The notes below the pieces were generated by a model that was not told the DNA's origin, did not search any database, and saw only the letters and a program-made list of their open reading frames with translations. This document shows positions 21,850 to 31,211 of a stretch of 64,000 nt of DNA, one piece after another; the first letter of the stretch is position 1, and every line of letters starts with the position of its first letter. This DNA is from Thermodesulfobacteriota bacterium (GTDB taxonomy: Bacteria; Desulfobacterota; Desulfobacteria; Desulfobacterales; JAUWMJ01): the NCBI GenBank assembly GCA_034189135.1, contig JAXHVO010000026.1:64900-128899 (forward strand), written 5' to 3'. Both the position numbers and the translations under genes were made by a program.

Positions 21850-23382
21850 TCAAATCGCTACCACCACCGGGTTGGCTTTAAGATATTCCAGCCTGTTCAG
21901 TCCGTTGACGTAAGCCTTGGCGCTGGCGGTGATAATGTCCGGGTCTGCCCCCTTACCGAGTGCGACCAGACCATTTTCTCTCAGACGTACCGTCACTTCG
22001 CCTTGAGCATCCGTTCCACCGGTCAGGGCACTTACGGAAAATCGTAAAAGTTCTGATTCCGTGCCTGTAAGTTTGGCAATCGCATTAAAAGCACTGTCAA
22101 TAGGGCCGTTTCCGTAATCGGCACCCTTAACCGACCTTCCGCTTATGTTGAGCTTTACACTGGCCATGGGAAGAACGGTTGTTCCACTGGTCACATGGAG
22201 GTATTCAAGACGGAAGATATCTTTGGTACGCAAGATTCCTTCCGTTACAATCACTTCCAGGTCTTCATCCACCACATGCTTCTTCTTGTCAGCCAGCTCT
22301 TTAAATTTCTTAAAAACCAGTTTTAATTCCTCATCGGAAAGGTCATACCCCAACTCTTTTAAACGAGAGCGTAAGGCATGTCTTCCGGAATGTTTTCCCA
22401 GCACAAGCGTATTTGTGTTTAGCCCGATTGTTTCCGGCCTCATAATTTCGTATGTCATGGGATTTTTTAGCACCCCGTCCTGGTGAATTCCGGATTCGTG
22501 CGCAAAAGCGTTTGCGCCTACAATCGCTTTATTCGGTTGAACAATGATCCCGGTAATCATACTGACAAGCCTGCTGGTGGGATAGATCAGGTTTGTTTGA
22601 ATTCCTGTTGATAGGGGGAGGAAATTTGGCCTGGTGTGAAGCGCCATGATCACTTCTTCCAGAGAGGTGTTCCCCGCCCTTTCTCCTATTCCGTTTATGG
22701 TTACCTCAGCCTGTCTTGCACCGGCGTTAACTGCGGCCAGAGTATTTGCGGTGGCAAGGCCAAGATCGTTATGGCAATGAATACTCAATATCGCTTGGTG
22801 GATATTGGGAGTGTGGGTCATGACGTATTTTACCAGTTCTGAAAATTCTTCAGGGATTGCATATCCCACTGTATCCGGCAGGTTGACTGTTGTTGCCCCG
22901 GCTGCTATTGCCGCTTCGAAAACCTTGCACAGAAAATCCCGGTCGCTCCGGGACCCGTCTTCGGCGGAAAATTCCACGTTATCGGTAAGCGACCGGGCAT
23001 ATTTGACCGATTCCACTGCAGTCTTTACTAGCTCATCCCGTGTCATTTTAAGCTTGTAGTCCATATGGATGTCGGAAGTGGCGATAAAGGTGTGTATTCT
23101 TGGTTTTGCTGCATGGTTAATAGCTTCCCAGGCACAGTCGATATCTTCTTTTGATGTCCGTGCAAGGGCGGTAACCTCGGTCTTTTCAAGTTTTTGCGCT
23201 ATCTGTGAAACCGCATCAAGATCTCCCTGTGAGGCCGCCGGAAAACCGGCTTCAAGAATATCCACCCCAAGTTTTTCCAATTGAACTGCAAGTCGCAATT
23301 TTTCAGCCGTATTCATGCTTGCACCCGGAGACTGTTCGCCGTCTCTTAAAGTGGTGTCAAAAATGTATACTCGATCTTTCAT
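21850..23382 (-). CDS. leuA: 2-isopropylmalate synthase
   Basis: MKDRVYIFDTTLRDGEQSPGASM...HCHNDLGLATANTLAAV. 510 aa with a C-terminal LeuA dimerisation/regulatory domain. Confidence 0.9.
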   Translation of the reverse strand: MKDRVYIFDTTLRDGEQSPGASMNTAEKLRLAVQLEKLGVDILEAGFPAASQGDLDAVSQIAQKLEKTEVTALARTSKEDIDCAWEAINHAAKPRIHTFIATSDIHMDYKLKMTRDELVKTAVESVKYARSLTDNVEFSAEDGSRSDRDFLCKVFEAAIAAGATTVNLPDTVGYAIPEEFSELVKYVMTHTPNIHQAILSIHCHNDLGLATANTLAAVNAGARQAEVTINGIGERAGNTSLEEVIMALHTRPNFLPLSTGIQTNLIYPTSRLVSMITGIIVQPNKAIVGANAFAHESGIHQDGVLKNPMTYEIMRPETIGLNTNTLVLGKHSGRHALRSRLKELGYDLSDEELKLVFKKFKELADKKKHVVDEDLEVIVTEGILRTKDIFRLEYLHVTSGTTVLPMASVKLNISGRSVKGADYGNGPIDSAFNAIAKLTGTESELLRFSVSALTGGTDAQGEVTVRLRENGLVALGKGADPDIITASAKAYVNGLNRLEYLKANPVVVAI

Positions 23383-23429
23383 GGTTTTTCTCCTTTTTTA
23401 AATAAATTATTCTATAGTTTATAAGCCCC

Positions 23430-25022
23430 TTATTTTGACAATTTATATTGAAAACTATCTGCCAGGGCCTGCCAGCTTGCTTCTATGACATCAGAGGAGA
23501 CGCCTATGGTACTCCAGATGTCATCCTGATCGCGCGACTCTATAAAAACGCGTACCTTTGCGGCGGTTCCGTCACGTCCGTCAATCACTCTTACTTTGAA
23601 ATCGACCAGGCGCATGGCATCAATATCCGGAAAAAATTTATCGAGAGCCTTTCGCAAGGCATTGTCCAACGCGCTGACAGGGCCGTTGCCTTCTGCAGCC
23701 GTTATCTCTTGAAATCCATCCACAGCTATCTTAATGGTTGCATAGGATGAACAGGGTCGATTTTTATCCTTTTCAATCGTTACCCTGAACGATTCCAGTT
23801 CAAACAGTGGTTTAAACTGTTCAGTAAACTTTTCCACCAGAATTTTAAAAGAACCGTCGGCCACATCAAACTGGTACCCCTCCTGTTCCATATTTTTTAT
23901 TTTAGATACGATTTTATTGCTGTCATGCCCGTTTCCACCCAGCTTAATTCCAAGCTCTTTGGCTTTGTATTCCACGTTGCTTCTGCCTGAAAGATCGGAG
24001 ATAAGCACCCGTCTCATGTTTCCCACAAGCTGAGGATCTATATGTTCATATGCCTTGGGCACTTTCGTAATCGCACTTACATGAATACCCCCCTTATGGG
24101 CAAAAGCGCTTTTACCGACAAATGGCCGGCTGTTTAAAGGAATCATATTGGCGGTTTCACTGACAAACCTGGAGAGTTTTCTTATTTTTTCAAGATTTTC
24201 CATGGAAACACAAGGCAGATTCATTTTTAAACTGAGAATGGGAATGATTGAGGTGAGGTCGGCATTTCCGCATCTTTCTCCATAACCATTGATGGTGCCC
24301 TGTACCATTACAGCTCCGGCCTTTATTGCAGTGATGGAATTTGCCACAGCCAGCCCGCTGTCGTTATGGGTATGAATTCCGATTTTAACCGGAAAAGCAC
24401 TTGCTGTGCCGGCGTATTTTTCATTTAGAGAATTTTTTACATGGTTAGTCACAGATTCAATATCAAAGGGGAGGGTGCCGCCATTGGTATCACAGAGCAC
24501 AATGACATCCGCACCGGAGTCAATAGCGGAAAACAGGGTTCGCATGGCATAATCCTTATCATCCTTGAACCCGTCGAAGAAGTGCTCTGCGTCGTAAATG
24601 ACTTCTTTATTATTTGCTTTGAGGTACTCAACGGAATCACCTATCATTGCAAGATTTTCTTCCAGGGAGTTGTCCATGATCTTTTTAACATGAAGTCCCC
24701 AGCTTTTTCCGAATATGGTAACAGCAGGCGTGCTGCTTTCAAGGAGTGCAGCGATATTATGATCTTTTTTCACATCAATGCCTGGTTTGCGCGTTGAACC
24801 AAACGCAGTTAGTCTGGCATTTTTAAATACGGTGTCTTTGGCAAGGTCAAAAAACTTCTTGTCCCTTGGGTTGGAATCCGGCCAGCCGCCCTCGATATAA
24901 TGCATCCCTGCATCATCAAGTCTTTTTGCAACCTTGATTTTCTCTTCAGCAGTGAAACTGACATTTTCACCTTGGGTTCCGTCTCTTAGGGTGGTATCAT
25001 ATAGCATGATAGGGTCCATCAC
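23430..25022 (-). CDS. cimA: (R)-citramalate synthase (LeuA-family type 2)
   Basis: MLYDTTLRDGTQGENVSFTAEEKIKVAKRLDDAGMHYIEGGWPDSNPRD...HTHNDSGLAVANS. The length (530 aa) and N-terminus match CimA-type enzymes. Confidence 0.8.
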   Translation of the reverse strand: MMDPIMLYDTTLRDGTQGENVSFTAEEKIKVAKRLDDAGMHYIEGGWPDSNPRDKKFFDLAKDTVFKNARLTAFGSTRKPGIDVKKDHNIAALLESSTPAVTIFGKSWGLHVKKIMDNSLEENLAMIGDSVEYLKANNKEVIYDAEHFFDGFKDDKDYAMRTLFSAIDSGADVIVLCDTNGGTLPFDIESVTNHVKNSLNEKYAGTASAFPVKIGIHTHNDSGLAVANSITAIKAGAVMVQGTINGYGERCGNADLTSIIPILSLKMNLPCVSMENLEKIRKLSRFVSETANMIPLNSRPFVGKSAFAHKGGIHVSAITKVPKAYEHIDPQLVGNMRRVLISDLSGRSNVEYKAKELGIKLGGNGHDSNKIVSKIKNMEQEGYQFDVADGSFKILVEKFTEQFKPLFELESFRVTIEKDKNRPCSSYATIKIAVDGFQEITAAEGNGPVSALDNALRKALDKFFPDIDAMRLVDFKVRVIDGRDGTAAKVRVFIESRDQDDIWSTIGVSSDVIEASWQALADSFQYKLSK

Positions 25023-25048
25023 TTTTTCTCCCTTGAATAAATGAATCC

Positions 25049-26098
25049 TTACTTTCTGTTTTCAGGTCTTAAAGAACGTACCGTCGCACCTGTTTTCCAC
25101 ATTTCTGAATTCTTTATTTCATCCAGTTCTTTTTGCAACTTTTCTCTGTAATCAGGCGCACTGTTTGCTTCAAGAACCCGTTTGGTCTCTTTCCCTGATA
25201 CAACATTTTGATACAGCATATCAAAGACCGGAGCCACGGCATCCCTGAATTTTGGCGCCCAGTCAAGGGCGCCCCTTTGCGCGGTGGTGCTGCAGTTTGC
25301 AAACATCCAGTCCATGCCGTTTTGCGCCACGAGTCTGATAAGACTCTGAGTCAGTTCTTCAACTGTTTCGTTAAAGGCCTCACTGGGACTGTGACCGTTT
25401 TTTCGTAAAACCTTATACTGGGCTTCCATAACTCCTGCCAGGCAGCCCATCAGAACACCACGCTCGCCGGTAAGGTCGCTGTATACTTCATTTTCAAAAG
25501 TCGTGGAGAAAAGATAACCGGAACCGATAGCAATTCCCAGGGCAATTGTTCTTTGTTTAGCTTTCCCTGTAAAGTCCTGATGCACCGCAAAACTGGAATT
25601 GATTCCACTGCCGTCTAAAAAGTTTGTGCGCACCGTTCGTCCGGAACCTTTGGGCGCAACCAGTATCACGTCAATATTTTCCGGAGGGATCACATTCGTC
25701 TGATCTTTATATACAATGGAAAAACCATGGGAAAAGTAAAGGGCATCTCCTTCATTGAGACATTTTTTAATCTCCGGCCATGTTGCAACCTGGCCTGCAT
25801 CTGAAAGGAGAAATTGAATAACCGTTCCTTTTTGCGCTGCTTCTACAAGTGGATAAAGTGTTTTGCCGGGAATGAATCCATCTGCGACGGCCCTGTCCCA
25901 TGAATCGCTTCCTTCTCTTTGACCGACAATGACGTTGACACCGTTGTCTTTCATATTTAAAGCCTGTCCCGGTCCCTGAACACCGTAACCGAGCACCGCA
26001 ACAGTTTCATCCTTTAAAAGTTGCTTTGCTTGCCGAATAGAAAATTCATCAGCTGTAACCACCTCTTCCAAAACACCGGCGAAATTAATTTGTGTCAT
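25049..26098 (-). CDS. ilvC: Ketol-acid reductoisomerase
   Basis: VAVLGYGVQGPGQALNMKDNGVNVIVG provides the NADP-binding GxGxxG. Class I length (349 aa). Confidence 0.9.
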   Translation of the reverse strand: MTQINFAGVLEEVVTADEFSIRQAKQLLKDETVAVLGYGVQGPGQALNMKDNGVNVIVGQREGSDSWDRAVADGFIPGKTLYPLVEAAQKGTVIQFLLSDAGQVATWPEIKKCLNEGDALYFSHGFSIVYKDQTNVIPPENIDVILVAPKGSGRTVRTNFLDGSGINSSFAVHQDFTGKAKQRTIALGIAIGSGYLFSTTFENEVYSDLTGERGVLMGCLAGVMEAQYKVLRKNGHSPSEAFNETVEELTQSLIRLVAQNGMDWMFANCSTTAQRGALDWAPKFRDAVAPVFDMLYQNVVSGKETKRVLEANSAPDYREKLQKELDEIKNSEMWKTGATVRSLRPENRK

Positions 26099-26166
26099 GT
26101 TAGGCCCCTTTTTGTTTATTGATTAGTAAATTGGTGTATTTATCCTTTGAAAACTAATTTAATCGT

Positions 26167-26208
26167 TCTCAGTTCTCAGTTGTCAGTTCACAGTTCACAT
26201 TTCACAGT
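26167..26208. repeat. Tandem array, 6 x 7 bp (minus-strand consensus ACTGWGA) in the ilvN-ilvC spacer
   Basis: Plus-strand units read tctcagt tctcagt tgtcagt tcacagt tcacatt tcacagt. Confidence 0.85.
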
Positions 26209-26426
26209 TTTTTTAAAGAGTCAGGCAATGACTGAAGCATTTTTCATATCGATTTCAATGCTCGAATGAGCTGTTTTAAATCTAAGTCATCAAAACAGGA
26301 TTCCATAATTGGCTTACGTTTTTTGTCTTTTTCAACCGGGCATCGTATAACCGGCACCCGTAAACCAATACAAAATTCTTTGTGCCTTTTTGGCCCATGT
26401 GTTTTTAATCACTTTTCGTTCGGATA

Positions 26427-26915
26427 CTAACTGGGTTCACGAAACAGTGCCATGATTCCTGTTCTTGCGATTTTTTTAATTCCCATGGGCTTTAAAAGGT
26501 TCAATATTGCCTGCATTTTGCCTTCATCACCGGTCACCTCAATGGTGTAATGATTAAGTCCCACGTCGATGACCTTGCATCGGAAAATATCAACAATTCT
26601 TAATAATTCAGCGCGGTGTTCTGATTTGGCTCTAACACATATGAGAGCCATTTCACGTTTAACAGCATTGGGACCTGTAAGATCTCGTATTTTAATCACA
26701 TTCACCAGCTTGTTCAGCTGCTTTTCGATCTGCTCAATCACCGGCCGGTTTGCCTTGGTGACAATGGTAATGCGGGAAATATCGGGATCAGTGGTTTCGG
26801 CCACGCACAGGCTTTCGATATTAAACCCTTTTCCACTGAAAAGGCCAACAACCCTTGACAATACTCCCGGCTGGTTGTCCACCAGCATGGAAAATATGTG
26901 TTTTTCTTCTGTCAT
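26427..26915 (-). CDS. ilvN: Acetolactate synthase small (regulatory) subunit
   Basis: The ACT domain start is HIFSMLVDNQPGVLSRVVGLFSGKGFNIESL. 162 aa, immediately downstream of ilvB. Confidence 0.9.
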   Translation of the reverse strand: MTEEKHIFSMLVDNQPGVLSRVVGLFSGKGFNIESLCVAETTDPDISRITIVTKANRPVIEQIEKQLNKLVNVIKIRDLTGPNAVKREMALICVRAKSEHRAELLRIVDIFRCKVIDVGLNHYTIEVTGDEGKMQAILNLLKPMGIKKIARTGIMALFREPS

Positions 26916-26930
26916 TATATCCTTTTCCTC

Positions 26931-28616
26931 CTATACCAGCAGCATCTCTGTGATGGGAGCACCGGCCGGCACCATGGGGTACACGCTTTCTTCTTTTTCA
27001 ACCATAAAATCCATGATGACTGTTTCGGAAGAAGAGAGGCCTTTGGCAAGAATAGGTTCTACTTCGTCAGGTTGGGTTGCTCTCAATCCGAGGGCACCAT
27101 AAGCGTGTGCCAGCTTTACGAAGTCGGGTGTGTGCTCCATCCGTGTTGAGGCATATCTCTTTTCATAAAAAAGTTCTTGCCATTGTCTTACCATTCCGAG
27201 GTAGCCGTTATTTAATATAACGATTTTAATCGGCAGAGAGTATTGGACGGCAGTTGCCATTTCCTGAATGTTCATTTGAATGCTTCCATCACCTGCAATA
27301 TCCACCACCAGCTTATCCGGGCAGGCGATTTGTGCTCCGATTGCTGCGGGAAGTCCGAAACCCATACAGCCCAGACCCCCGGATGTGATGAAATGGCCGG
27401 GTTGATCAAAATGATAATACTGGGCTGCCCACATTTGGTTCTGTCCCACTTCGGTGGTTATGATGGCTTGGCCTTTGGTCAGTTTATATAGTTTTTCAAT
27501 GACGTATTGCGGTTTTATAATATCTTTCTGCTTATACGCCAGGGGTTTGGTGTTTTTCCATTGATTGATTCGTGCAAACCATTTTGTTCTTTGGTTACTG
27601 ATATTACTCAAATCAACATTATCAATGAGTTGATTGAGGTGACCAAGGCTTATTTTGCAGTCGCCGACAATCGGGATGAAGACCGGGATGTTTTTGCGTA
27701 TTGATGTGGGGTCGATATCAATATGCACTATTTTAGCTTGGGCGGCAAAAGCGTCCGTTTTTCCGGTCACCCGGTCATCAAACCTGACACCGATGGAAAT
27801 AAGAAGGTCACAGTCTCCCGTGCACATGTTCGCCCTGTAAGTCCCATGCATGCCGATCATGCCGAGCCATAAAGGATCAGTCGCAGGAAAGGCGCCCAGA
27901 CCCATAAGGGAAGTTGTGACAGGAATTTGAGTTTTCCGGGCAAATTCCGTGAGTTCATTGGAAGCTTTTGAAAGGATAACACCCCCTCCGGCAAAGATAA
28001 GCGGTCTTTTTGCTTTTTTTATAAGCGATACTGTTTTCTTAAGCTGCTTGATATTGGGGTCATATGTTGGATTATAGGATTTAAGATTTACTTGCGTTGT
28101 CCCATTATAATCTGTACGCTGATTGGTAAGATTTTTAGGGATATCAATCAGGACAGGTCCGGGACGGCCGGAACGGGCAATATAAAATGCTTCTTTAATG
28201 ATCTTGGAAAGATCCTCTGTTTTGCTGACTAAATAGCTATGCTTGGTACAGGGCCTGGTTATTCCCACAATGTCCACCTCTTGAAAAGCATCATTTCCAA
28301 TCAGATGGGTGGGGACCTGCCCGCTGATTACAACCATGGGGATGGAATCCATATAGGCGGATGCAATGCCGGTTACAGTATTTGTGGCACCGGGGCCGGA
28401 AGTCACCAGACAAACGCCTACTTTTCCACTGGCTCTGGCATATCCATCTGCGGCATGTACAGCGCCCTGCTCATGGCGGACCAATATATGGCGTATATCC
28501 GTCCTTTCAAGTTCATTGTATATGTCTATAACCGCACCACCGGGGAAACCGAAGATTCTGTCAACCCCTTCTTCTTTTAATACTTCCATCATAATCTGTG
28601 CGCCGGTTAATTTCAT
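26931..28616 (-). CDS. ilvB: Acetolactate synthase large subunit (biosynthetic type)
   Basis: MKLTGAQIMMEVLKEEGVDRIFGFPGGAV...GGLGCMGFGLPAAIGA...GDGSIQMNIQE (ThDP motif). ATG 28616 chosen (AAAGGA RBS); the track ORF starts at 28643. Confidence 0.9.
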   Translation of the reverse strand: MKLTGAQIMMEVLKEEGVDRIFGFPGGAVIDIYNELERTDIRHILVRHEQGAVHAADGYARASGKVGVCLVTSGPGATNTVTGIASAYMDSIPMVVISGQVPTHLIGNDAFQEVDIVGITRPCTKHSYLVSKTEDLSKIIKEAFYIARSGRPGPVLIDIPKNLTNQRTDYNGTTQVNLKSYNPTYDPNIKQLKKTVSLIKKAKRPLIFAGGGVILSKASNELTEFARKTQIPVTTSLMGLGAFPATDPLWLGMIGMHGTYRANMCTGDCDLLISIGVRFDDRVTGKTDAFAAQAKIVHIDIDPTSIRKNIPVFIPIVGDCKISLGHLNQLIDNVDLSNISNQRTKWFARINQWKNTKPLAYKQKDIIKPQYVIEKLYKLTKGQAIITTEVGQNQMWAAQYYHFDQPGHFITSGGLGCMGFGLPAAIGAQIACPDKLVVDIAGDGSIQMNIQEMATAVQYSLPIKIVILNNGYLGMVRQWQELFYEKRYASTRMEHTPDFVKLAHAYGALGLRATQPDEVEPILAKGLSSSETVIMDFMVEKEESVYPMVPAGAPITEMLLV

Positions 28617-28713
28617 AGCATAGTCCTTTTTTACTTTTACCACGGATTTTCACGGAATCACCACAGAGACTAATAATCAATCTTCAAGCCGTGAACGACT
28701 GCTTTTATTAAGC

Positions 28714-28753
28714 AAAAAAAAACCGTTATCAGTATTGGGCTGATAACGGTTTT
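28714..28753 (-). terminator. Attenuator terminator upstream of ilvB
   Basis: On the minus strand AAAACCGTTATCAG, a 7-nt loop and CTGATAACGGTTTT are followed by further T residues (a 9-nt A-run on the plus strand, 28714-28722). Confidence 0.75.
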
Positions 28754-28785
28754 GAATTTTTTATATATTATAAATTAAGTCATTA

Positions 28786-28875
28786 TCAACCCGGATGCTC
28801 GTAGTAGACTAGTATATCTACTACGAGTAGAATAATGATGTTAATTAGGTTGTTAATGACTTTAGTTGTTTTCAT
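28786..28875 (-). CDS. Putative ilv operon leader peptide (29 aa, 14 Ile/Leu/Val)
   Basis: Hand translation gives MKTTKVINNLINIIILLVVDILVYYEHPG then stop. It sits between a TTGACA/TAATTG promoter and the terminator, upstream of ilvB. Confidence 0.6.
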   Translation of the reverse strand: MKTTKVINNLINIIILLVVDILVYYEHPG

Positions 28876-28905
28876 GGTATGTTGCAAATTCCTGTTGTAT
28901 TTTCC

Positions 28906-28934
28906 CAATTAACAGCCTGAAAATATGTTGTCAA
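28906..28934 (-). promoter_or_regulatory. Sigma70-like promoter of the ilv leader
   Basis: On the minus strand TTGACA (28934-28929), a 17-nt spacer and TAATTG (28911-28906), about 30 nt before the leader ATG. Confidence 0.5.
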
Positions 28935-28940
28935 GCTTTT

Positions 28941-31211
28941 TTATTTCGTTTCTTGGTAGCCACACCCTTTTTTAATGCATGAATGAACAGTTCCATGTTT
29001 CTTAGTTGTTTTTTCCAGTAGAAACGGTGCACCGCAGTCCGGGCATTTTTTATCTATGGGTTTATCCCATGTAGCGAATGTACATTTAGGAAAGTGACTG
29101 CAGCCGTAAAAGATTTTTCCTCTTTTGGATTTTCTTTCCACCAGATCGCCGGTGCAGTCCTTTTCGGGGCATTTAAGGCCAATCTTTTTACCGTTTCCGG
29201 CTGAATTGATGGATTCGGTATGTTTGCACTCCGGATACCCGCTGCATGCAAGAAATTTTCCATAGCGTCCGGTTTTCAACACCATGGGTTTGCCGCATTT
29301 TTTACATACCTTTTCAGATAGTTGTTCCTTGGAAGGTTCCACCGGTTTTATCTTACCTTTCTCATCACGGATGTAATCCCTCGAATAGGTGCACTCCGGA
29401 TACCCGCTGCATGCAAGAAAATGTCCGTTTTTCCCGACTTTGATATTAAGTTCATTGCTGCATTGAGGACACCTCAGGCCTGTCGGAAGGCCAACGCCTT
29501 TCATGCTGAGCATGGCCTTTGAAGCTTTATCCAGTTTCTTTTTAAACGGGTCGTAAAAGCGGGTAAGAATGTCGAGGGAATTAATTTCAGCAGATTCCAC
29601 CCGATCCAAATCTTCTTCCATCCTGGCAGTGAATTCCACATCGAATACTTCCGGAAAGTTTTCTACCAGAAGGTCATTTACGATAAAACCGAGTTCGTTG
29701 GGTATGAAGTGTCCTTTTATGAGTTCGACATATCCTTTCCCTCTAATTGTTGACAGAATTGCCGTATAAGTACTTGGACGGCCTATTCCGTTTTCTTCAA
29801 GCTCTTTTACTAAAGAGGCTTCGGAAAACCTGGGGGGCGGCAGGGTAAAGTGTTGTTTGGGTTCTAACTGCAAAAGCTTTAATACCATACCCGGTGAAAG
29901 TTCAGGAAGCTGTTTGCTTTTCTTCTCACTTTCAATTTCTTCATCCACCGACATGTAAAGGGCCATAAAGCCTGGAAATTTAACGGAAGATCCGTTGGCG
30001 GAAAATAAATACTCACCGGACACAATTGAAACCGAAACCTGATTAATAATAGCAGGTTGCATCTGAGAGGCAACGAATCTCTGCCATATCAGACGATATA
30101 ACGCGAGCTGCTCTGTTGAAATGTGGGACGCCACTTTTTCAGGGGTGTTAAAAACGGATGTGGGCCGAATCGCCTCATGTGCATCCTGAACTTTTTTTCT
30201 ATTTTTGAAAAATCTTGGCTTATCAGGGGCATATTCTTTCCCAAAACGCCGACTTATCAGCTCAAGTGCTTCCGTGGCGGATTCTTTTGATATCCGGGTG
30301 GAATCGGTTCGCATATAAGTGATCAGTCCGACAGGTTCACCGGAACCAAGGGTGACCCCTTCATACAACTGCTGGGCGATAATCATGGTTTTTCTTGCAG
30401 AAAATCTGAGTTTCCGTATGGCTTCCTGCTGAAGTTTGCTGGTGATGAAAGGGGGCAGAGGGTTTCTTTTTCTGGTTTTTTTTAGCACCTTTTGTATGAC
30501 AAAATCTTTTCCGGACAGCTCATCTACGATAGCAGAGGATTTCCTTTCGTCCGGGATTTTAATTTTCTTTCCTTTTTGTTTAACCAGTTTTGCGGTGAAA
30601 GGGGGAGGAGAGTCACCTTCAAGATGAGCGGTAATCGACCAGTATTCTTCAGATTCAAAGGCCCAGATTGCGCGTTCTCTTTCACAGATGATTCGCAGCG
30701 CAACGGATTGAACCCTTCCTGCGCTGAGGCCACCTTTTACTTTGCGCCACAGCAGGGGAGACGTCTGGTATCCAACGAGCCGGTCGAGTATTCGTCGCGC
30801 CTGCTGGGCTTCATACTTATTTTTATGAAGTTCCTGAGGTGAGGAGATTGCTTCTATTATGGCGTTTTTGGTAAGTTCATGAAAAAGGACCCGGTAAAAC
30901 TTTCTCCCCTTTTTTTTCAAAACCTCAGCGGCATGCCATGCAATGGCTTCTCCTTCCCTGTCCGGATCAGGTGCCAGATAGATGTTTGTTGCACTGCCTG
31001 CCGCCTGTTTGAGTGCTCGTATAACCTTTTGCTTTCCAGGAATATTGATGTATTTTGGTTTGAAGCCATTTTCAACATCGATACCCATTTCCTTTGCGGG
31101 AAGGTCCTTTATATGGCCAACAGTAGCGGCCACATTGTACTTATTGTCGAGGTACTGTTTTATGGTTCGAATTTTAGTGGGTGATTCAACAATGATTAAA
31201 GGCTTGCTCAC
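28941..31211 (-). CDS. topA: DNA topoisomerase I with C-terminal zinc-ribbon repeats
   Basis: The Toprim start is LIIVESPTKIRTI. It is followed by YITYMRTDS-like ITYMRTDSTR (active-site Tyr region) and four CxxC...CxxC zinc ribbons. GTG start with GAGGAA RBS. Confidence 0.95.
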   Translation of the reverse strand: MSKPLIIVESPTKIRTIKQYLDNKYNVAATVGHIKDLPAKEMGIDVENGFKPKYINIPGKQKVIRALKQAAGSATNIYLAPDPDREGEAIAWHAAEVLKKKGRKFYRVLFHELTKNAIIEAISSPQELHKNKYEAQQARRILDRLVGYQTSPLLWRKVKGGLSAGRVQSVALRIICERERAIWAFESEEYWSITAHLEGDSPPPFTAKLVKQKGKKIKIPDERKSSAIVDELSGKDFVIQKVLKKTRKRNPLPPFITSKLQQEAIRKLRFSARKTMIIAQQLYEGVTLGSGEPVGLITYMRTDSTRISKESATEALELISRRFGKEYAPDKPRFFKNRKKVQDAHEAIRPTSVFNTPEKVASHISTEQLALYRLIWQRFVASQMQPAIINQVSVSIVSGEYLFSANGSSVKFPGFMALYMSVDEEIESEKKSKQLPELSPGMVLKLLQLEPKQHFTLPPPRFSEASLVKELEENGIGRPSTYTAILSTIRGKGYVELIKGHFIPNELGFIVNDLLVENFPEVFDVEFTARMEEDLDRVESAEINSLDILTRFYDPFKKKLDKASKAMLSMKGVGLPTGLRCPQCSNELNIKVGKNGHFLACSGYPECTYSRDYIRDEKGKIKPVEPSKEQLSEKVCKKCGKPMVLKTGRYGKFLACSGYPECKHTESINSAGNGKKIGLKCPEKDCTGDLVERKSKRGKIFYGCSHFPKCTFATWDKPIDKKCPDCGAPFLLEKTTKKHGTVHSCIKKGCGYQETK

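Follow-up and report, generated by a model that had tools for sequence, protein, structure and literature searches.

The attenuators of the enterobacterial trp, leu, ilvGMEDA (leader peptide IlvL) and ilvBN (IvbL) operons follow a common plan: a short open reading frame (ORF) rich in cognate codons is combined with four RNA strands that pair alternatively as a protector (1:2), an antiterminator (2:3) and a terminator (3:4) with a U-run, and a ribosome terminating at the stop codon covers strand 2. In Escherichia coli and Salmonella, the ilvL ORF carries a multivalent mixture of Ile, Leu and Val codons. The T-box leaders of Firmicute ilv-leu operons serve the same pathway and likewise choose between terminator and antiterminator according to tRNA charging, but they respond to uncharged tRNA directly and do not require an ORF. 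A further system, the ilvB-II upstream ORF (uORF) motif of Corynebacterium, was found by comparative genomics and is described as genus-restricted, with 103 representatives and two stems, of which P1 is the antiterminator and P2 the terminator (Narunsky et al. 2023, PMC10272879; via PMC11109978). Here we analyze the gap between topA and ilvB in a 64,000-nt stretch of contig JAXHVO010000026.1 (hereafter the window) from an uncultured relative of sulfate-reducers belonging to the Desulfobacterales (Thermodesulfobacteriota). From its sequence and that of its relatives, we consider it very probable that this gap holds a ribosome-mediated leader-peptide transcription attenuator heading the ilvBNC-cimA-leuA operon.

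The gap comprises 324 nt on the minus strand, from the topA stop codon at 28941 to the ilvB ATG at 28616, which has AAGGA upstream. NCBIfam models give the gene order dprA-topA-[gap]-ilvB-ilvN-ilvC-cimA-leuA, in which cimA encodes citramalate synthase. All five operon genes (21850..28616) match equivalogs above cutoff, and the products of the operon are precisely Ile, Leu and Val, as the original prediction had proposed from the letters of the window. That prediction had also placed in the gap a promoter, a 29-codon ORF, an 11-bp hairpin, a terminator and a strand able to sequester it, and had read them as classical attenuation; we recovered every one of these elements on the same strand and at the same positions. 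The leader ORF contains 14 Ile, Leu or Val residues among its 29 and ends in a TGA (28788-28786) that lies within the switch strand, segment 2. When all ATG-initiated ORFs of 20–45 codons in the six frames of the window were compared (n=304), the leader ORF was the extreme outlier, with 12 Ile/Leu/Val in its best 14-residue stretch and 8 in that of the runner-up. The whole leader is also unusually stable, with a predicted folding energy of -52.6 kcal/mol compared with -22.6 kcal/mol for shuffled sequences (z = -8.6). Taken together, the outlier status of the ORF and the stability of the fold confirm the leader and indicate that it is no chance feature.

The features of the leader and operon are collected in Table 1. 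In the minimum free energy (MFE) fold, segment 1 (AAGUCAUUA-CAACCU) pairs with segment 2 (GGGUUG-AUAAUGACUU) over 15 bp, and the perfect 11-bp hairpin, which we call P, is nested inside this helix 1:2. The original prediction had recorded the hairpin and given it no role. The pairing that it had proposed between GGGTTGATAATG (28792-28781) and CGTTATCAGCCC (28748-28737) over 12 consecutive positions, 10 Watson–Crick and 2 G–U, was borne out, and one additional pair brings the antiterminator formed by segments 2 and 3 to 13 bp. Segment 2 can thus alternate between segments 1 and 3, and segment 3 between segments 2 and 4, so that the helices are mutually exclusive. Their predicted energies are balanced, at -18.4 kcal/mol for helix 1:2, -18.1 for P, -19.2 for helix 2:3 and -17.3 for the terminator. 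For a partial transcript ending in the terminator loop, with no ribosome, the predicted structure is helix 1:2 plus P, with segment 3 free. Masking a ribosome at about codon 14 of the same transcript switches the MFE fold to helix 2:3; such folding with hard constraints is informative only for stalls at codons 11–14 and for partial transcripts. The attenuator hairpin is likewise terminator-like when read on the plus strand.

Table 1. Coordinates of the leader elements and operon genes within the window.
Feature	Coordinates	Strand	Basis and remarks
Candidate -35, TTGACA	28929..28934	minus	sequence; begins 7 nt after the topA stop
Candidate extended -10, TGT + TAATTG	28906..28914	minus	sequence; TGT 28914-28912, TAATTG 28911-28906; 17-nt spacer from the -35
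Leader ORF MKTTKVINNLINIIILLVVDILVYYEHPG	28786..28875	minus	29 codons + TGA; putative regulatory Ile/Leu/Val codons 10-23
Segment 1, anti-antiterminator 5′ strand AAGTCATTAACAACCT	28847..28862	minus	MFE fold; leader codons 5-10
Hairpin P CTCGTAGTAGA/TCTACTACGAG	28798..28827	minus	11 bp, perfect; arms 28827-28817/28808-28798; codons 17-26
Segment 2, switch strand GGGTTGATAATGACTT	28777..28792	minus	holds the leader TGA; partner is segment 1 or segment 3
Segment 3 CCGTTATCAGCCC	28737..28749	minus	terminator 5′ arm and first loop bases; antiterminator partner of segment 2
Intrinsic terminator, segment 3:segment 4	28710..28753	minus	14-bp hairpin 28753-28719 + T9 28718-28710
ilvB	28616-26931	minus	NCBIfam
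ilvN	26915-26427	minus	NCBIfam
ilvC	26098-25049	minus	NCBIfam
cimA	25022-23430	minus	NCBIfam
leuA	23382-21850	minus	NCBIfam

Conservation of the small ORF and of the alternative helices upstream of orthologous ilvB genes had been named beforehand as a test of the prediction. To assemble relatives, an IlvB scan limited to one genome per species yielded 80 loci (IlvB identity 66–82%), all from metagenome-assembled genomes of Desulfobacterales or related Thermodesulfobacteriota. A plainly homologous Ile/Leu/Val-rich ORF lies just 5′ of ilvB in 17 of them, and their alignment served to build a profile hidden Markov model (nhmmer). This model detected the leader in 49 of the 80 loci; the next gene is ilvB in 18 of these and ilvD, followed by ilvB, in the other 31. 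In the window, ilvD does not separate the leader from ilvB. The gene upstream of the leader is again topA in locus L014, and topA is the upstream neighbor in many related loci. The sequence of the window itself was matched in one Logan assembly (one metagenome run) only.

A second set came from a scan of metagenome contigs with a pattern made of part of segment 2, segment 3 and segment 4, which retrieved at least 120 loci. Among the loci listed, the next gene is ilvB in 62 and ilvD in 46; six run into a contig end, four precede other genes and two are false matches. An ORF ends at segment 2 in at least 114 of the 117 listed loci with enough upstream DNA, and its peptide is rich in Ile, Leu and Val in all but one, the exception being one of the false matches. 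At least 106 of these peptides are distinct. Both sets thus bear out the expected conservation, and we take the leaders to form a conserved family of predicted attenuators that is absent from the catalogues that we searched and has members in some 160 related genomes and metagenome contigs.

Covariation provides evidence for both folds. The first 18 sequences aligned showed 82.5% pairing in the terminated state (helix 1:2, P and terminator), in which 19 pairs had changed on both sides; none of 500 shuffles came out as high. Pairing in the antiterminator was 89.6%. The genome-derived set of 48 leaders (47 loci plus the window), which was not selected by pattern, keeps the 13 core antiterminator pairs at 85–98%, and 10 of the 17 pairs tested in it have changed on both sides. 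In an alignment of 150 sequences, of which 102 were retrieved by the pattern, the terminated state was 83.2% paired, compared with 30–50% when partners were slid by 1–3 columns; 30 of its 40 pairs had changed on both sides, and none of 500 shuffles reached any of five measures. Helix 1:2 was 77% paired, with 11 of 15 pairs changed on both sides, and the segment 1 partner is less clear in about one-third of the divergent members. In hairpin P, 10 of 11 pairs had changed on both sides, and a stable hairpin occupies the same place in most relatives. As the pattern fixes TAATG, most of segment 3 and part of segment 4, and with them parts of segments 2, 3 and 4, the pairing there (95% for the terminator; 95.6% for antiterminator 2:3, compared with 21–57% when slid) is inflated, whereas the covariation is not: nine terminator pairs and six antiterminator pairs had changed on both sides, and the antiterminator covariation score was reached by 0 of 500 shuffles. 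The genome-only counts and the parts free of the pattern (segment 1, P, the 5′ half of segment 2 and the loop) agree with the result from the 150 sequences.

We regard joint change at positions common to two helices as the most telling evidence for the predicted alternative folds. At alignment columns 158 (segment 2), 217 (segment 3) and 240 (segment 4), the combinations A-T-A, G-C-G and A-T-G occur in 81, 21 and 21 sequences, respectively, and triple covariation is also present across segments 1, 2 and 3 of the 150 sequences. Furthermore, the bases of the terminator loop, on which the terminator helix places no constraint, track the 5′ G-run of segment 2, in the combinations GGG/CCC, GGA/TCC, GTG/CAC and CGG/CCG.

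Alternating helices of this kind could also be set by an RNA-binding protein, uncharged tRNA or a small ligand, with the reading frame incidental. Precedents exist for the pathway, in that Firmicute ilv-leu operons have T-box leaders and ilvB is sometimes under a ppGpp (guanosine tetraphosphate) riboswitch (PMC11109978). The strong nucleotide conservation of segments 1 to 4 could by itself hold a frame open, and the ORF lacks a Shine–Dalgarno sequence. The coding signature of the leader argues against such a factor or ligand. In the core columns of the codon alignment, position 2 is almost invariably T (entropy 0–0.9 bits), while positions 1 and 3 are variable (0.8–1.9 bits), and these NTN codons persist in the variable part between the helices. 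RNA pairing does not account for this three-base periodicity, which is explained by selection for Ile, Leu and Val codons. Even though the frame changes, all 48 genome-derived leaders retain an ATG and an in-frame stop on segment 2, as do at least 114 of the 117 metagenome loci listed. The alignment shows neither a conserved pocket of unpaired bases nor a loop resembling a specifier, and at gathering threshold no Rfam family, T-box and ppGpp riboswitch included, matched anywhere in the window. We therefore consider a switch of this type highly unlikely.

If the frame is read, the product might instead be the point of the element, namely a small, hydrophobic peptide that acts in the membrane, as a proteolipid, a toxin or a regulator of some membrane protein, and whose mRNA structure and 3′ end are formed by the helices and the terminator. 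The peptide does resemble a single transmembrane helix, with weak sub-threshold matches to EbrB and Sensor_TM1 segments, and its ORF is conserved in about 150 sequences. Its composition is nevertheless peculiar. All 48 genome-derived leaders start with ATG and span 26–37 codons when, in four with a long N-terminal extension, counting begins at an internal Met; Ile, Leu and Val make up 47% of their residues (20, 16 and 11%, respectively), with Phe at just 1.4%, Ala at 4.5% and Trp at 0.5%. In typical membrane helices, Phe, Trp and Ala are much commoner.

The 3′ end of the ORF is equally difficult to reconcile with a membrane peptide. Two reading frames cross segment 2 in different lineages, giving tails of the type ...HPG*, with the stop inside segment 2, and ...GLIMA*, with the stop just past it. 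The stop nevertheless lies within segment 2 or no more than 4 nt beyond it in 46 of 48 genome-derived leaders, and among the metagenome loci listed it ends mostly at three discrete offsets from TAATG (0, +3 and +11), with few outliers. Since the stop is kept on segment 2 despite the two frames, selection acts on the end point of translation and not on the C-terminal peptide; a tail of variable frame with a fixed stop position argues for a sensor ORF over a functional peptide. In addition, in every one of the 48 genome-derived leaders, the sequence that pairs best with the loop and 5′ arm of the terminator either overlaps the stop codon or directly adjoins it. The arm and loop also co-vary with the strand carrying this codon, and a gene end as such would require no covariation of that kind. 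The element lies immediately 5′ of ilvB or ilvD on the same strand, a position that we would call invariable, and its ORF has no Shine–Dalgarno sequence. None of four leader peptides had an exact counterpart among 15 billion collected proteins. The chance that the ORF serves as a membrane peptide seems to us very slim.

The gap also appears to contain a promoter for the leader. The original prediction had named TTGACA, a 17-nt spacer and TAATTG, all of which are present, and its -35 element is conserved: TTGACA or TTGACT lies about 59 nt (range 47–75) 5′ of the leader ATG in about 44 of 48 homologous loci. The proposed hexamer held up less well. As read by eye from the sequences, a TGYTA-like motif follows the -35 after about 14–15 nt in most relatives, and the leader promoter is probably better described as a -35 element with a TGn extended -10 before a poorly conserved hexamer. 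Transcription would then start near 28899, about 23 nt before the leader ATG, leaving a 5′ untranslated region of only about 23 nt that is A-rich (window 28876-28899). Two other signals were considered and rejected: a promoter-like site inside the ORF (28856-28829), which showed no sign of conservation on reading the alignment, and an alternative TTG start at 28908 (a 40-aa ORF), which lies inside the -10 region.

That the hairpin and T9 are merely the terminator of topA, and the remainder chance, is hardly credible: although no other terminator-like site exists between the topA stop and ilvB, so that the hairpin probably also ends read-through from topA, a frequent upstream neighbor, the conserved promoter lies after topA and ahead of the hairpin, the ORF stands out statistically, and the ORF, segment 1, P and segment 2 are conserved and co-vary with the terminator, which already refutes this reading.

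The attenuator that we favor would operate as follows. With no ribosome on the leader, or after it has departed, segments 1 and 2 would form a rod with P inside, segments 3 and 4 would pair, and the transcript would end at about 28710-28718. When Ile, Leu and Val are plentiful, a ribosome would reach the TGA and cover segment 2, so that the pairing of segments 3 and 4 again leads to termination. When charged tRNA-Ile, -Leu or -Val runs short, the ribosome would stall at codons 10–19, where it covers segment 1 and opens the 5′ arm of P. Segment 2, about 30–55 nt downstream of the A site, would then be free to capture segment 3 on its emergence, and the resulting helix 2:3 would block the terminator and let RNA polymerase read into ilvB. 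The original prediction had arrived at classical attenuation without segment 1. Conservation, covariation, the coding signature and the placement of the stop all support its reading, and the missing fourth strand changes the default state: without helix 1:2, an untranslated leader would read through, whereas with it termination is the default and a stalled ribosome is needed to free segment 2. Stalling, coupling of transcription to translation and a response to the supply of Ile, Leu and Val are what we infer from this arrangement.

Besides the inflated pairing percentages discussed above, several observations weigh against this model. No leader was detected by nhmmer in about 25 of the 80 related loci with sufficient upstream DNA; at least 6 further loci without a match have too little upstream DNA to judge. 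The -10 hexamer matches TATAAT at 2 of 6 positions, which is poor and weak on its own, and a generic promoter scan missed it because that scan needs at least 4 of 6 matches. Translation initiation is the most conspicuous difficulty. No Shine–Dalgarno sequence precedes the leader ATG in the window, where the nearest AGGA is 15 nt off. Only 6 of the 48 genome-derived leaders, a set that includes the window, have a purine-rich match of four bases in the 18 nt before the ATG, mostly at unsuitable spacing, and nearly all of the 48 lack a Shine–Dalgarno sequence 5–13 nt from the ATG, whereas ilvB has one. That the leader ORF is translated is suggested by its conserved ATG, open frame and coding signature, not by an initiation signal.

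The geometry of stalling imposes a further restriction. A ribosome at the Ile/Leu/Val codons 21–23 would have its leading edge on segment 2, and those codons probably contribute little; only the earlier Ile/Leu/Val codons would fit the attenuation model cleanly. When stalls at codons 17–22 were masked, the folding program still drew helix 1:2, and the steric effect of a ribosome between segments 1 and 2 is not representable in it.

Compared with the known systems, the leader has every structural feature by which ribosome-mediated attenuators are classed, namely the Ile/Leu/Val-rich ORF, the terminator, the antiterminator, the 1:2 helix and the placement of the stop. It resembles the enterobacterial attenuators in its short ORF of cognate codons, with the Ile/Leu/Val mixture of ilvL, in its protector, antiterminator and terminator with U-run, and in the stop codon at which a terminating ribosome would cover strand 2. 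It differs from them in the position of the Ile/Leu/Val codons, which lie mostly between strands 1 and 2, around the extra nested 11-bp hairpin, and not within strand 1, as well as in its lack of a Shine–Dalgarno sequence and in the phylum of its host, Thermodesulfobacteriota. We found no homology to ilvL, ivbL or leuL, with no relevant blastn match in 5,426 complete E. coli genomes. In NCBIfam and Pfam scans of four leader peptides, no leader-peptide family appeared at E <= 10, only weak transmembrane-like noise. When the gap was searched with all of Rfam (4227 models) at a permissive E-value, only sub-threshold matches were obtained, the best being Thr_leader RF00506 (23.1 vs 55 bits) and Trp_leader RF00513 (15.7 vs 41 bits); the three alignments shown rest mainly on the terminator hairpin, and that of Thr_leader covers little more than the terminator. 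No T-box match was among these hits. Unlike the Firmicute T-box, the Desulfobacterales sensor would be an Ile/Leu/Val-rich ORF.

Judged by its description, the Corynebacterium ilvB-II uORF motif is the closest published analogue in kind. Both are lineage-restricted, with a conserved Ile/Leu/Val-rich uORF 5′ of ilvB, a terminator and a complementary antiterminator, and both are known from a comparable number of representatives. As far as the description goes, the Desulfobacterales element belongs to another sequence family in another phylum, adds the 1:2 helix and the nested hairpin, and also heads ilvD-ilvB operons. A literature search found no description of ilv attenuation in Desulfobacterales. 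The classical-attenuation surveys of Vitreschak (2004) and Lopatovskaya (2010) may list scattered delta-proteobacterial predictions. An analysis of delta-proteobacterial regulons mentions neither ilv nor leader peptides (Rodionov 2004, PMC545781), and another paper retrieved by the search (PMC4833913) is irrelevant to the leader question. The mechanism is thus already known, and the family appears to be uncatalogued.

Some leaders depart from the usual codon content or gene context. At two metagenome loci, L132:7265-9763 (contig Ga0272441_10001007) and L142:3781-6232 (Ga0265294_10009029), the same scaffold of segment 1, P, segment 2 and terminator carries an Ile-only ORF, MKIYIAIISIISIIIAAGIIGCCDTGG, with 11 Ile, 0 Leu and 0 Val, in one case and the similar MKTDTAIINIISIISIFVAGIIIGCENGV in the other. 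Instead of ilv genes, these leaders precede genes for an HTH_3/Cupin_2 regulator (184 aa) and an AMP-binding acyl-CoA synthetase (556–557 aa), and may represent an Ile-specific attenuator on an accessory operon for Ile supply. An Ile-biased leader, MTNVSSIINRAGIIIIIAAGMITRCGRRG, with 8 Ile, 0 Leu and 1 Val, stands before ilvB itself at L067:2724-2907 (metagenome-assembled genome Desulfobacterales AnMBR.bin174). At L138:4299-4463 (minus strand of the locus), a normal Ile/Leu/Val leader downstream of topA has behind it, in place of ilvB or ilvD, genes for a 326-aa hexapeptide-repeat transferase and a 419-aa pyridoxal phosphate (PLP) enzyme of Cys/Met metabolism; possibly the locus has been rearranged, or it represents a second target. 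A wider reading, which we put forward only tentatively, is that of an order-wide Desulfobacterales attenuator family without Shine–Dalgarno sequences, missing from the searched catalogues and with the element of the window as its founding example, in which some lineages have altered the codon content and put the scaffold to new use.

Within the operon of the window, the ilvN-ilvC spacer is unusually long (328 nt) and contains about six tandem heptamers of the form ACTGNGA at 26165-26208 on the minus strand (ACTGTGA AATGTGA ACTGTGA ACTGACA ACTGAGA ACTGAGA). No terminator and no Rfam match were found in this spacer.

These results would extend classical ribosome-sensing attenuation of branched-chain amino-acid synthesis to the Desulfobacterales and thereby to the Thermodesulfobacteriota. 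No principle is changed, and a specialist would not be surprised, yet the comparative support is unusually complete. With about 150 distinct members and covariation in each of the two folds, the alignment is sufficient to seed an Rfam-type model and to annotate ilv operons in sediment metagenomes. The points that deserve follow-up are the re-deployed Ile-only variants and the missing Shine–Dalgarno sequences, which raise the question of how such leaders are translated efficiently enough for coupling with RNA polymerase. The family also amounts to a natural experiment, in which one four-strand scaffold carries codon mixes for Ile, Leu and Val or for Ile only and has its 3′ end read in two frames. 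If the variants are real Ile sensors, the non-ilv genes behind them would belong to isoleucine supply, for example by activating the 2-methylbutyrate from which anaerobes make Ile reductively, and the variants would illustrate how an attenuator evolves a new amino-acid specificity while its RNA scaffold stays the same.

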